Origin: a virus
Lineage: Duplodnaviria; Heunggongvirae; Uroviricota; Caudoviricetes
Reading direction: 5' to 3' (one strand)
DNA length: 12,446 nt
IMG/VR virus record: IMGVR_UViG_2875718163_000001
Span: 1 to 12,446 of that record
A program made the translations under genes and the position numbers. The notes under the pieces were generated by a model. The model ran no database searches. It was not told the origin of the DNA and was given only the letters and a program-made list of their open reading frames with translations. Positions 3,258 to 12,446 of this stretch are shown here, in pieces. How positions within the stretch are numbered: the first letter of the stretch is position 1; every line of letters starts with the position of its first letter.

Positions 3258-4784
3258 ATGAAAAAAGCCATAGCATATATGCGATTTTCATCACCAGGTC
3301 AGATGTCTGGCGACTCATTAAACCGACAGAGAAGACTTATTGCTGAATGGTTAAAGGTAAATAGTGATTATTATCTTGATACCATAACATATGAAGATTT
3401 AGGATTAAGTGCATTCAAAGGAAAGCATGCACAATCAGGAGCTTTTTCGGAATTTTTAGATGCTATAGAGCATGGTTATATATTGCCAGGAACTACATTG
3501 TTAGTTGAAAGTCTGGACAGACTTTCAAGAGAAAAAGTCGGTGAAGCGATTGAACGTCTGAAATTGATTTTGAATCACGGTATTGATGTTATAACTCTTT
3601 GCGACAATACAGTCTATAATATTGACTCTTTGAATGAGCCATATTCATTAATAAAAGCCATACTTATAGCACAAAGGGCAAATGAAGAAAGCGAGATAAA
3701 GTCAAGTCGGGTTAAATTATCATGGAAGAAAAAACGGCAGGATGCACTGGAATCAGGTACGATTATGACGGCGTCTTGTCCGAGATGGCTCTCCTTAGAT
3801 GACAAAAGAACGGCTTTTGTTCCAGACCCCGACAGGGTGAAAACTATTGAGCTAATTTTTAAACTCAGGATGGAAAGGCGCTCATTGAATGCAATAGCCA
3901 AGTATTTAAATGATCATGCTGTAAAGAATTTCTCAGGAAAAGAAAGTGCATGGGGACCTTCTGTAATTGAAAAATTATTAGCGAATAAAGCTCTGATAGG
4001 TATTTGCGTACCTTCATATCGTGCAAGAGGGAAAGGGATAAGTGAAATCGCTGGCTATTATCCCAGAGTCATATCAGATGATTTGTTTTACGCTGTACAG
4101 GAAATTCGGTTGGCACCTTTTGGTATTAGCAATAGTAGCAAGAATCCTATGCTAATAAATCTACTTCGAACAGTTATGAAGTGTGAGGCTTGTGGTAATA
4201 CCATGATTGTTCATGCGGTATCTGGAAGTTTGCATGGCTATTATGTTTGTCCGATGAGAAGATTACATCGATGTGACAGGCCATCAATAAAAAGAGATTT
4301 GGTTGATTATAATATCATTAATGAATTGCTTTTTAATTGTAGCAAAATTCAACCAGTTGAAAACAAGAAAGATGCTAATGAAACTTTAGAGTTAAAAATT
4401 ATTGAGCTTCAGATGAAAATTAATAATTTAATCGTTGCATTGTCTGTCGCGCCTGAAGTTACCGCTATAGCAGAGAAAATAAGACTATTAGATAAGGAAT
4501 TACGAAGGGCTTCGGTATCATTGAAAACTTTGAAGAGTAAAGGTGTAAATTCATTCAGTGATTTTTATGCTATTGACTTAACCAGTAAAAATGGACGAGA
4601 GTTATGCCGTACACTTGCCTATAAAACATTCGAAAAAATCATAATTAATACGGATAATAAAACCTGTGATATCTATTTTATGAATGGCATTGTTTTTAAA
4701 CACTATCCTTTAATGAAAGTAATATCCGCCCAGCAGGCGATAAGTGCTCTCAAATATATGGTTGATGGTGAGATTTATTTCTAA
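3258..4784 (+). CDS. ybcK: Large serine recombinase (resolvase catalytic domain + recombinase domain + zinc ribbon + coiled-coil tail)
   Basis: 508-aa ORF. N-terminal AIAYMRFSSPGQ (nucleophilic Ser context) and ..VESLDRLSR.. resolvase motifs; Cys cluster CEACGN...C..C..HRC; C-terminal Leu/Ile-rich heptad-like stretch. Visibly AT-rich codon usage unlike flanking phage genes. AGGTG 6 nt upstream of ATG. Confidence 0.9.
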   Translation: MKKAIAYMRFSSPGQMSGDSLNRQRRLIAEWLKVNSDYYLDTITYEDLGLSAFKGKHAQSGAFSEFLDAIEHGYILPGTTLLVESLDRLSREKVGEAIERLKLILNHGIDVITLCDNTVYNIDSLNEPYSLIKAILIAQRANEESEIKSSRVKLSWKKKRQDALESGTIMTASCPRWLSLDDKRTAFVPDPDRVKTIELIFKLRMERRSLNAIAKYLNDHAVKNFSGKESAWGPSVIEKLLANKALIGICVPSYRARGKGISEIAGYYPRVISDDLFYAVQEIRLAPFGISNSSKNPMLINLLRTVMKCEACGNTMIVHAVSGSLHGYYVCPMRRLHRCDRPSIKRDLVDYNIINELLFNCSKIQPVENKKDANETLELKIIELQMKINNLIVALSVAPEVTAIAEKIRLLDKELRRASVSLKTLKSKGVNSFSDFYAIDLTSKNGRELCRTLAYKTFEKIIINTDNKTCDIYFMNGIVFKHYPLMKVISAQQAISALKYMVDGEIYF

Positions 4785-8311: not shown

Positions 8312-8695
8312 ATGCGTGATATTCAGATGGTTCTTGAGCGTTGGGGAGCGTGGGCGGCTAATAATCATGAAGATGTGACCTGGTCGTCCATTGCCGCCGG
8401 TTTTAAGGGATTAATTACTTCAAAAGTAAAATCTCGCCCGCAATGTTGTGACGATGACGCGATGATCATTTGCGGGTGCATGGCCCGTCTGAAAAAGAAC
8501 AACAGCGATTTGCACGATTTATTAGTAGATTATTATGTAGTCGGTATGACATTCATGTCACTGGCAGGTAAGCATTGCTGCTCTGATGGTTATATCGGGA
8601 AAAGGTTACAGAAGGCTGAGGGCATAATTGAAGGGATGTTAATGGCATTAGATATCCGGTTAGAGATGGATATCGTTGTTAATAACTCTAATTAA
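8312..8695 (+). CDS. quuD: Late-gene antiterminator Q homologue (phage 82/21 Q type)
   Basis: 127-aa [25 protein letters not shown]... with Cys-rich region (..[18 protein letters not shown].., ..HCCSDG..). GGAG 8 nt upstream of ATG 8312; the track ORF from TTG 8297 is an extension. Sits where lambdoid Q genes sit. Confidence 0.85.
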
Positions 8696-8834
8696 TATGC
8701 CAATTGTTTACTAAAAATTATTAAAAATGGGGCGTTGAGACGCCCCCAAAAATAAAGGGTAATATATAACAGAAGGTTTATATAGTTAGAAGCAAGGTTG
8801 TGCTTCTAAAGGAAGTGGCTTGAGGGAGCCACTT

Positions 8835-8876
8835 ATATGTTGGGGAGGCAACGCCTCCCGCAACATATCTTTTTCG
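8835..8876 (+). terminator. Intrinsic terminator: long hairpin followed by CTTTTTCG
   Basis: ATATGTTGGGGAGGC (8835-8849) pairs with GCCTCCCGCAACATAT (8853-8868), with a 7-bp perfect GC-rich core, a 3-nt loop and one bulge, then a T-run. 140 nt downstream of quuD. Confidence 0.6.
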
Positions 8877-8884
8877 TAATCAGA

Positions 8885-8944
8885 TTAGAACTGGTAAACC
8901 AGACCTACAGCAACGATGTCATCAGTGCTTACACCGAGTGCTTT
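8885..8944 (-). pseudogene. nmpC: 3' stub (~19 codons) of an OmpC/OmpF-family porin gene
   Basis: Minus-strand reading gives ...KALGVSTDDIVAVGLVYQF-stop, the characteristic porin C-terminus ending in Phe. Porin-like sequence is lost upstream of this, so only the gene tail survives. Confidence 0.5.
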
Positions 8945-9095
8945 AGGGAAGGTGCGAATAAGCGGGGAAATTCTTCTCGGCTGACTCAGTCATTTCATTT
9001 CTTCATGTTTGAGCCGATTTTTTCTCCCGTAAATGCCTTGAATCAGCCTATTTAGACCGTTTCTTCGCCATTTAAGGCGTTATCCCCAGTTTTTA

Positions 9096-9395
9096 GTGAG
9101 ATCTCTCCCACTGACGTATCATTTGGTCCGCCCGAAACAGGTTGGAAAAAATGCCAGAGACTCCGCTGAAGTGGTGGAAACCGCATTCTGTACTTTCGTG
9201 CTGTCGCGGATCGCAGGTGAAATTGCCAGTATTCTCGACGGGATCCCCCTGTCGGTGCAGCGGCGTTTTCCGGAACTGGAAAACCGACATGTTGATTTCC
9301 TGAAACGGGATATCATCAAAGCCATGAACAAAGCAGCCGCGCTGGATGAACTGATACCGGGGTTGCTGAGTGAATATATCGAACAGTCAGGTTAA
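9096..9395 (+). pseudogene. nohD: C-terminal fragment of terminase small subunit Nu1; N-terminal DNA-binding half missing
   Basis: From ~9147 the ORF reads [82 protein letters not shown], recalled as the lambda Nu1 C-terminus. Upstream codons are unrelated and the frame is closed by TAG at 9093-9095. The 26-nt overlap with the following A start is as in lambda. Confidence 0.75.
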
Positions 9396-10113
9396 CAGGC
9401 TGCGGCATTTTGTCCGCGCCGGGCTTCGCTCACTGTTCAGGCCGGAGCCACAGACCGCCGTTGAATGGGCGGATGCTAATTACTATCTCCCGAAAGAATC
9501 CGCATACCAGGAAGGGCGCTGGGAAACACTGCCCTTTCAGCGGGCCATCATGAATGCGATGGGCAGCGACTACATCCGTGAGGTGAATGTGGTGAAGTCT
9601 GCCCGTGTCGGTTATTCCAAAATGCTGCTGGGTGTTTATGCCTACTTTATAGAGCATAAGCAGCGCAACACCCTTATTCCAGCTGGCTTCGTGGCTGTTT
9701 TCAACAGTGATGAGTCATCGTGGCATCTCGTTGAAGATCATCGGGGTAAAACGGTTTATGACGTGGCTTCCGGCAACGCGTTATTTATTTCTGAACTCGG
9801 TCCGTTACCGGAAAATGTTACCTGGTTATCGCCGGAAGGGGAGTTTCAGAAGTGGAACGGTACAGCCTGGGTGAAAGATGCAGAAGCAGAAAAACTGTTC
9901 CGGATTCGGGAGGCGGAAGAAACAAAAAACAGCCTGATGCAGGTAGCCAGTGAGCATATTGCGCCACTTCAGGATGCTGTAGATCTGGAAATCGCAACGG
10001 AGGAAGAAACCTCATTGCTGGAAGCCTGGAAAAAATATCGGGTGTTGCTGAACCGTGTTGATACATCAACTGCACCTGATATTGAGTGGCCTACGAACCC
10101 TGTCAGGGAGTAA
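9370..10113 (+). pseudogene. tfaD: Chimeric ORF: terminase large subunit A N-terminus (~103 aa) fused in frame to the C-terminal ~145 aa of a tail-fibre assembly protein (Tfa)
   Basis: [33 protein letters not shown]...[12 protein letters not shown] is lambda gpA as I recall it. From [29 protein letters not shown]... to ...[13 protein letters not shown] is Tfa family. Junction at about 9678/9679. Confidence 0.8.
9949..10089 (+). repeat. Direct repeat copy 1 (~141 bp, Tfa C-terminal coding segment)
   Basis: AGTGAGCATATTGCGCCACTTCAGGATGCTGTAGATCTGGAAATCGCAACGGAGGAAGAA... recurs at 10996-11136 with scattered substitutions. Confidence 0.8.
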
Positions 10114-11151: not shown

Positions 11152-11696
11152 TAAACAGTATGTATATCATAGGTTATTAATTGTGAGTTTTTTCGGTGTG
11201 TTATTTGTTTGTTTGATGTTATGCTTTTGCGCCCCAAAAGGTTGTTTAGATGTATTTTATCAATTGATTTTCAATATCGTTTAATAAAGAAAAATTAAGC
11301 AAGCTGGATGTTGGTTTTTTGTTAATTGAATGGTTCTAATAATGTTTTTTTACTGTTGTTGAATGTGACTTGATAAGAAATGCAAGTAAAAATGATACTC
11401 TTTTTATTTTAAATTCAAACGGTTGACATATATATAGCAAGAGGTTTCAGGTGCGTTGTAGTGAGTTTATGTTAATAAAAAGCATAGTAAGCGTTGAAAA
11501 ATGTAACTTTGAAATAAGTTAGAATAAAAAACAACATACATATAATAATTTAATCTTAAATGAAATTTATTAAAATTTGCAAACTATAATTTTGTGTATA
11601 AAAATATAAATGCACATCATCCTGATTATGATTGTGTATTTAATTGGTTGTTATTTGACTACTATCAACTTGTTTTAATTTTATGATAGGTGCAAG

Positions 11697-12446
11697 ATGG
11701 ATTATGTTTGCTCCGTAGTTTTCATCTGTCAATCATTTGATTTAATTATAAACAGGAGAGTTATCTCGTTCAAAAAAAATTCATTGTTTATTGTAAGCGA
11801 CAAAATTAGAAGGGAGTTACCAGTATGCCCCTCTAAACTAAGAATTGTTGATATAGATAAGAAAACATGTTTATCCTTTTTTATCGACGTGAATAATGAG
11901 CTGCCTGGCAAATTTACTCTTGATAAGAATGGCTATATTGCTGAAGAGGAACCTCCATTATCGCTTGTTTTTTCTCTGTTTGAAGGGATTAAAATAGCAG
12001 ACTCACACTCCCTTTGGTTAAAAGAAAGACTATGTATATCCTTACTTGCCATGTTCAAAAAACGCGAAAGTGTAAATTCATTTATACTAACAAATATAAA
12101 TACATTTACCTGTAAAATTACTGGAATAATCAGTTTTAATATTGAGCGGCAATGGCATTTAAAAGATATTGCGGAATTGATTTATACGAGTGAAAGTTTA
12201 ATAAAAAAAAGATTAAGGGATGAAGGAACGTCATTTACTGAAATATTGAGAGATACTAGGATGAGGTATGCAAAAAAACTCATAACTTCAAACTCTTATT
12301 CTATCAATGTCGTAGCCCAGAAATGTGGCTATAACAGTACTTCATATTTCATATGTGCATTTAAAGATTATTATGGTGTCACGCCATCTCATTATTTTGA
12401 GAAAATAATCGGCGTCACAGATGGAATAAACAAAACAATTGACTGA
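11697..12446 (+). CDS. appY: AraC-family transcriptional activator AppY
   Basis: 249-aa [44 protein letters not shown]... with C-terminal AraC HTH (..[39 protein letters not shown]...[24 protein letters not shown]), recognised as AppY. AGGTG upstream of ATG; AT-rich, low-complexity codon usage; preceded by ~545 bp of very AT-rich DNA. Confidence 0.9.

Follow-up and report, generated by a model that had tools for sequence, protein, structure and literature searches.

We propose that the hairpin-rich stretch following the Q antiterminator gene quuD is the structured 3′ untranslated region (3′UTR) of the porin gene nmpC/lc on the minus strand, apparently the known ipeX RNA, and not a late promoter unit, a reading to which we assign a probability of about 0.8. 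The stretch lies in a window of 12,446 nucleotides, the whole piece of viral DNA analyzed here. The complete 3′UTR comprises 162 nt (8723–8884, minus strand), beginning one base past the stop of the porin gene and finishing at the RNA 3′ end mapped by Term-seq. We take 8723–8884 to be ipeX, understood as the non-coding RNA segment of qsr′/DLP12 that runs from the stop codon of nmpC/lc to a Rho-independent terminator. An element of this kind, a phage-porin 3′UTR regulator, is already known. The label ipeX is used in none of Rfam 15, RefSeq NC_000913.3, the Term-seq tables and the RIL-seq tables; the 3′ end is catalogued in the latter two as ‘antisense to ybcQ’ or as an intergenic (IGR) node.

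The whole window corresponds to the cryptic prophage DLP12 (qsr′) of the E. coli K-12 type, with a match that spans intD to appY. The 249 bases at 8696–8944 are 100% identical to K-12 DLP12, to the lc record of phage PA-2 (J02580), and to the hybrid phage 434B. On one side lies quuD (8312–8695, plus strand), annotated in RefSeq, which encodes a 127-aa Q antiterminator of the Q21/Q933W family (Pfam PF06530, E 3.5e-53) with a distant match to Q21 structures and a stop codon at 8693–8695. On the other side lie the last 19 codons and stop codon of nmpC (8885–8942, minus strand; gene fragment 2, annotated at 574529–574586 in NC_000913.3), which end in ...YQF and a stop at 8885–8887. The first-pass annotation had placed the two stops at 8695 and 8885–8887, and both positions were verified.

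That annotation had also described four perfect hairpins between the two genes. All four are present, and an inverted-repeat search recovered 100% complementary arms for hairpin 1 (8729–8735 and 8740–8746, 7 bp), hairpin 2 (8786–8794 and 8801–8809, 9 bp) and hairpin 3 (8813–8820 and 8827–8834, 8 bp). Hairpin 4, in contrast, is bulged: its outer arms (8835–8842 and 8861–8868) and inner arms (8843–8849 and 8853–8859) form 15 bp interrupted by G8860. It had been drawn as extending to 8876 with a T run; the T run is present, but the stem stops at 8868, and the CTTTTTCG tail occupies 8869–8876. A fifth, weak hairpin composed of A/T only is found at 8763–8784 (about −1.2 to −1.3 kcal/mol). Folded singly, hairpins 1–4 have energies of −12.5, −9.7, −12.4/−10.4, and −20.8/−22.2 kcal/mol, and the 162-nt 3′UTR has a minimum free energy of −62.9 kcal/mol. 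Folding of both strands, a check that had been suggested earlier, gave a structure far more stable than expected for 8696–8890, with z = −6.1 for the plus strand and z = −8.0 for the minus strand, and 0 of 200 dinucleotide shuffles equally stable.

To describe conservation, we compared 26 distinct haplotypes drawn from phages, prophages and viral contigs. Among them, the stem of hairpin 1 and the outer stem of hairpin 4 are invariant, while the loops vary. In hairpin 2 (8786–8809, 9-bp stem), 14 of the 15 non-Watson–Crick cells form G–U pairs in the minus-strand RNA only, a pattern that favours that strand. Hairpin 3 (8813–8834), which we list on the minus strand with its 8-bp stem, has few variants with a slight plus-strand lean and no clear strand preference, and hairpin 4 likewise carries no clear strand signal. 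Conservation is of limited power here, because all homologues of the hairpin block are close relatives. Across E. coli genomes and phages, the hairpin sequences were found solely alongside the porin gene, and since they are restricted to this locus, we rejected a repeated element of the REP/ERIC type. Rfam searches at gathering and permissive thresholds yielded no family that fits the region, with matches at chance level only (E 1.4–7), and a tRNA scan found none. Older records place a plus-strand open reading frame at 8837–9055 (‘ORF1’ of PA-2, CPT_434B_68 of 434B), whose ATG at 8837 falls within hairpin 4; its length ranges from 12 to 72 aa across variants, and it is probably not a gene.

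The RNA 3′ ends mapped in MG1655 place the transcript on the minus strand. We used the curated Term-seq tables of Adams et al. 2021, in which the listed sequence extends 10 nt beyond the 3′ end; coordinates in NC_000913.3 equal window coordinates plus 565644. Minus-strand ends at 574367/574366 (window 8723/8722, ...GGGGCGUCUCAACGCCCCAUUUUU(A)) lie 6–7 nt past hairpin 1. Together with a terminator scan, they identify hairpin 1 and its A-UUUUU tract (8723–8746, minus strand) as the intrinsic terminator of the porin/ipeX transcript: a 7-bp stem with six G–C pairs is followed by AUUUUU, with the RNA end within the tract, although the U tail has just five U. Behind it, a Rho-dependent termination region at approximately 8677–8697 on the minus strand (Adams et al., Supplementary file 2, 574331 = window 8687) is antisense to the 3′ end of quuD and forms a backstop. 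A further minus-strand 3′ end, 574476 (window 8832), lies 3 nt past hairpin 4. Hairpin 4 (8835–8868) caps this stable 3′ end on the minus strand. On the plus strand it is followed by CTTTTT at 8869–8874 and has the sequence features of a terminator. Judged from these letters, a role as plus-strand terminator for quuD read-through is plausible. Of the convergent terminators offered earlier as the simpler explanation, the one at hairpin 1 is verified and the one at hairpin 4 plausible; a regulatory role of the block as a 3′UTR had not been anticipated.

Published work agrees with transcription in this direction: in K-12, minus-strand transcription from PnmpC passes through IS5 (PMC11677980). In the same study, a terminator placed in this spacer had no effect, which the authors credit to existing intrinsic terminators. 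Two Hfq RIL-seq data sets contain the node ‘insH-2.ybcQ.IGR’ in chimeras, represented by 322 and 121 chimeric fragments, respectively; its sRNA-likeness in a RIL-seq re-analysis is 0.019, unlike an sRNA. The locus is unmentioned in an Hfq CLASH table and an EPEC RIL-seq table. Because a second stable 3′ end sits just past hairpin 4, the data suggest that the distal ~109 nt (8831 to 8723) may be separable from the porin mRNA.

The description of ipeX fits this locus. Castillo-Keller, Vuong and Misra (2006, J Bacteriol 188:576) are reported to have located ipeX after nmpC in qsr′/DLP12, with an identical sequence after lc in PA-2. In that work ipeX reportedly reduced OmpC and OmpF post-transcriptionally, left OmpA unaffected and acted on ompC without requiring Hfq; the authors reportedly found no complementarity of ipeX to ompC, which conflicts with the present computation. 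Host OmpC is the receptor of PA-2. In later literature, IpeX is cited as an sRNA that targets ompC mRNA (PMC5745476, PMC3333887).

Hairpins 2 and 1 are separated by a segment (8749–8783, minus strand) that hardly varies, is mostly free of structure and is complementary to ompC. The segment is unpaired except for the weak A/U hairpin and is the best-conserved part of the locus, with 97–100% identity where the porin coding sequence has 85–93%. Its minus strand pairs with positions −32 to −2 of ompC, including the Shine–Dalgarno sequence, through 27 bp (26 Watson–Crick and one G–U) at −26.7 kcal/mol. None of 1000 dinucleotide shuffles paired as well (z = −4.65), nor did any of 6662 windows from 50 kb of MG1655 (best −22.3) or any of 38 annotated initiation regions (best −17.4). 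Computed identically, the established pair MicF–ompF reaches −27.4 kcal/mol. In the ranking of predicted duplexes, ompC is followed by ompF at −18.8 kcal/mol and ompA at −11.4 kcal/mol; ompA is at background, as is the phage’s own lc leader. The ompF duplex has a 10-bp core on the Shine–Dalgarno sequence, but 59 of 1000 dinucleotide shuffles were as good, and since it is indistinguishable from these shuffles we make no claim for it. Shuffling tests of long duplexes, in which the entire 109-nt fragment was set against porin leaders, were uninformative.

Like MicF and MicC, the RNA thus offers an accessible segment with extended complementarity to the initiation region of a target, in this case ompC. 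The plus strand of 8750–8782 aligns to the ompC 5′UTR, so that the segment resembles an ompC leader that was captured in inverted form. These properties suggest plain antisense action of ipeX on ompC, and long, near-perfect pairing would fit the Hfq-independence that is reported for ompC. The complementary patch could also be a functionless remnant derived from a leader like that of ompC. That IpeX works by direct antisense pairing that occludes the ompC Shine–Dalgarno sequence, and that this is still unpublished, is a joint proposition that we advance tentatively and regard as possible rather than probable.

We hypothesize the following sequence of events. The porin gene, its own promoter and its tail would constitute an accessory cassette, or ‘moron’, inserted in reverse orientation between Q and the genuine late promoter. 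Transcripts initiated at the porin promoter would run past the stop codon, hairpins 4, 3 and 2 and a ~39-nt open segment, and would end at hairpin 1 and its U tract, where Term-seq maps the 3′ end. The tail would be ipeX, lowering OmpC and OmpF but not OmpA. It would act as an antisense RNA, its open, invariant segment pairing with the ompC leader and Shine–Dalgarno sequence and blocking translation initiation. Hairpins 2–4 most likely stabilize the RNA, a property to which the terminator may also contribute. On the plus strand, hairpin 4 and its short T run would probably stop unmodified transcription leaving quuD.

To locate the late control unit that QuuD would be expected to serve, we read the sequence 3′ of the Q stop codon in QuuD relatives, taking one genome per species. 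In ~24 related loci, which represent seven genera (Shigella/Escherichia, Trabulsiella, Pantoea, Citrobacter, Xenorhabdus, Providencia, and Morganella), a conserved promoter/leader/terminator unit begins 0–50 bp 3′ of Q. It comprises a palindrome TTTACGWWCGTAAA(A) overlapping the −35 hexamer, a −10 hexamer (TAYnnT), the initial transcribed sequence GWTAAGAGTGRT, a stem-loop in the leader, and a terminator hairpin followed by a T run. Covariation is seen in the leader stem, where 86% of cells are paired compared with 25–46% in slid controls and AU/UA exchange occurs, and the terminator shows compensatory changes. The invariant signature TTTACGWWCGTAAAA of the QuuD family occurs once, downstream of Q, in 35 of 42 loci. 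In the annotated late unit of phage 21 (OL657228), the −35 hexamer lies 7 bp past Q, a Q-binding element lies between the hexamers, and a pause element TAAGCTG after the start site is followed by the terminator. The layout and ~85-bp size of the conserved TTTACGWWCGTAAAA unit match this annotated phage 21 pR′ unit. The palindrome TTTACGWWCGTAAA is a candidate site for Q binding, unlike in form to the Q21 site, which is a direct repeat. In some Xenorhabdus and Morganella prophages (L032, L037, and L039 at ~4426–4440), the Q stop codon falls within the promoter palindrome, and the C-terminal tails of these Q proteins are hypervariable past an LEMD motif.

In DLP12, PA-2, 434B and other porin-carrying phages, the conserved unit is found ~2.85 kb past Q, after the porin gene and upstream of essD. 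In K-12 ER1709 (locus L001), the candidate late control unit spans 11797–11900, upstream of essD, and comprises the palindrome TTTACGWWCGTAAA (here TTTACGTACGTAAA), a −10 hexamer, a pause-like element TAAGAG, a leader stem-loop and a terminator (AAACCCGCCG...CGGGTTTTT). A published lysis-operon reporter fragment (−121 to +650) corresponds to L001 11360 to about 12130, and its start site therefore also falls in the nmpC–essD spacer. The implied start, at ~11481 of L001, precedes the Q-linked unit by ~320 bp, and transcripts from it would cross the predicted tR′ terminator. From the window analyzed here the conserved late unit has been deleted: TTTACGWWCGTAAAA and GWTAAGAGTGRT are absent, and the only match to TTTACGWWCGTAAAA, at 11466, has three mismatches and is at chance level.

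The hairpin block, in turn, appears to belong to cargo. Homology among Q genes ends near 8671, which makes the hairpins the part of the inserted porin cassette that lies nearest to Q. The gap between Q and pR′ is empty in ~24 loci and is occupied in others by the porin cassette or by unrelated minus-strand genes; in Stx2a_1447 and PhiR40_1, the conserved unit comes after such other minus-strand genes. As this gap is a cargo slot, the late unit can be displaced by kilobases. The porin cassette itself is variably present in collinear phages and has its own terminator and a defined junction, as a moron does. In Citrobacter amalonaticus (L020, 4370–4508), all that separates Q from the late unit is a 140-bp insert whose single hairpin has A and T runs on its flanks; this insert may be minimal or decayed cargo in the same slot. 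Two loci considered as cassette-boundary cases were rejected: H170 carries a secondary ISKpn26 insertion, and H169 has no annotated Q gene and is apparently a deletion.

These observations bear directly on the alternative put forward in the first-pass annotation, in which a Q-dependent promoter within 8696–8830, with QuuD loading there, would give a short plus-strand RNA ending at hairpin 4, an analogue of lambda 6S RNA. Lambda, phage 82 and phage 21 all have their late unit directly after Q, hairpin 4 does carry a plus-strand T run, and a weak promoter-like sequence, TTGAGA-19-TAATAT at 8735–8765, would yield an RNA of ~100 nt. The same annotation had seen no convincing −35/−10 pair, and rightly so: a sigma-70 scan of the plus strand of 8696–8885 was empty, and the best lenient candidate scores 9/12, with a 19-bp spacer and a −35 hexamer in the variable loop of hairpin 1. 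Against a late unit at this site also stand the lack of TTTACGWWCGTAAAA and GWTAAGAGTGRT in the window, the finding that the TTTACGWWCGTAAAA unit adjoins Q wherever no cassette is present but lies past the porin gene in both DLP12 and PA-2, the mere 21 bp that Stx2a_1447 leaves between the Q stop and a converging gene, and the occurrence of the hairpins only with the porin gene. Among the ends in the MG1655 Term-seq condition listings, no plus-strand 3′ end falls in 568708–578444, an interval that includes hairpin 4; this is weak evidence against a short plus-strand RNA, because the short leader of the predicted true late unit is undetected in the same tables. With no promoter and no TTTACGWWCGTAAAA here, and the late unit located elsewhere, we consider this alternative very improbable.

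A less extreme alternative is that the block consists of plain convergent terminators and a passive 3′UTR, in which hairpin 1 ends the porin transcript, hairpin 4 ends that of quuD, hairpins 2 and 3 are stabilizers or relics, and the RNA has no function in trans. The terminator scan, the Term-seq ends, the ineffective terminator insertion in the spacer (PMC11677980) and the low RIL-seq sRNA score are all as this alternative predicts. It does not account for the citation of IpeX as an ompC regulator (PMC5745476, PMC3333887), nor for the 27-bp match to the ompC ribosome-binding region, which exceeds all controls, and it leaves unexplained that the most conserved part of the locus is a non-hairpin segment. 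The match and its conservation make a purely passive tail unlikely. The phenotype reported for ipeX also speaks against it. The palindromes could instead be elements of the DNA itself, whether protein sites, cruciforms, or joints that recombination left behind as one cassette after another was inserted between Q and the late promoter; the Q–pR′ gap is indeed a recurrent insertion slot with differing cargo, and the C. amalonaticus insert is a lone 140-bp piece with a single hairpin. Yet the hairpin sequences are found nowhere else in E. coli genomes or phages, the RNA 3′ ends coincide exactly with hairpin bases, and the G–U substitutions of hairpin 2 preserve pairing only at the RNA level, so that a DNA-level element has very little to recommend it.

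The structured porin 3′UTR, our preferred reading, can be placed among known systems. It corresponds most closely to ipeX of qsr′/PA-2: the stretch in the window is 100% identical to the PA-2 record, with the difference that the porin body and promoter are deleted here, which makes expression doubtful. With MicF (linked to ompC, targeting ompF) and MicC (linked to ompN, targeting ompC), it shares the principle of a porin-linked antisense RNA directed against the ribosome-binding region of a competing porin, and the predicted duplexes of MicF–ompF and ipeX–ompC are of equal strength. MicF and MicC, in contrast, have their own promoters and lie divergently upstream of the porin gene, whereas ipeX is the 3′UTR of the porin mRNA itself; there is no sequence or Rfam relationship between them. 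The hairpin block resembles a lambdoid late unit (pR′, Q-binding element, sigma-dependent pause, tR′, 6S RNA) in its post-Q place, its ~180-bp size and its strong hairpins, but it has no promoter, Q-family motif or pause element, and its RNA comes from the opposite strand.

The cassette as a whole is comparable to the phage morons bor and lom of lambda in being self-contained, expressed in the lysogen, located between essential modules and closed by an intrinsic terminator. It departs from typical morons in its position between Q and the target promoter of Q, in its orientation against late transcription and in a tail with a proposed regulatory antisense segment. Similar to the 3′UTR-derived sRNAs CpxQ, SroC, DapZ, and MicL, ipeX shares the terminator of its mRNA and may give rise to a processed piece of ~109 nt between the two mapped 3′ ends. 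StxS, which comes from the pR′ transcript of Stx phages, differs in that it derives from the plus-strand late leader, while ipeX derives from a cargo gene.

For annotation, a structured region right after Q in a porin-carrying prophage of the QuuD type should not be taken for the late control unit, which is the TTTACGWWCGTAAAA module. If the pairing with ompC is real, it would provide a simple mechanism for a regulator orphaned for 20 years and would overturn the reported status of IpeX as an RNA with no complementarity and unknown mechanism. The phage porin mRNA would then itself silence the porin that serves as host surface receptor while supplying a replacement porin, and nmpC/lc–ipeX would constitute a third porin/anti-porin RNA pair beside ompC–micF and ompN–micC.

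In the window itself, the porin tail is followed by the left ~200 bp of a shortened IS5 (8947–9145, minus strand) fused to the interior of nohD. The junction, at 9145–9147, joins IS5 at about its position 200 to nohD with one extra A and no microhomology, and was found in 0 of 5,426 complete E. coli genomes. It accounts for ~6.3 kb of K-12 DLP12 missing from the window, including the remainder of IS5, the body and promoter of nmpC, the late unit, essD-rrrD-rzpD, bor, ybcV, ybcW, and ylcI. With the porin promoter and body, the late unit and the lysis genes gone, quuD and the porin tail are probably stranded remnants here. A second clean deletion internal to an IS element is present at 2191–2192, where 830 bp of IS3 (L001 1613–2442 in ER1709) are absent, likewise without microhomology. 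The remnant terminase/tail-fibre region carries a full-length match to the Rfam family IS009 (9872–10070, plus strand; 227.8 bits). Lastly, a QuuD-like protein with 85% identity to E. coli QuuD is encoded on a 2.1-kb contig binned as ‘Candidatus Nanosynbacter’ (L041, JARKOR010000135.1), which is probably a mis-binned fragment of an enterobacterial prophage.
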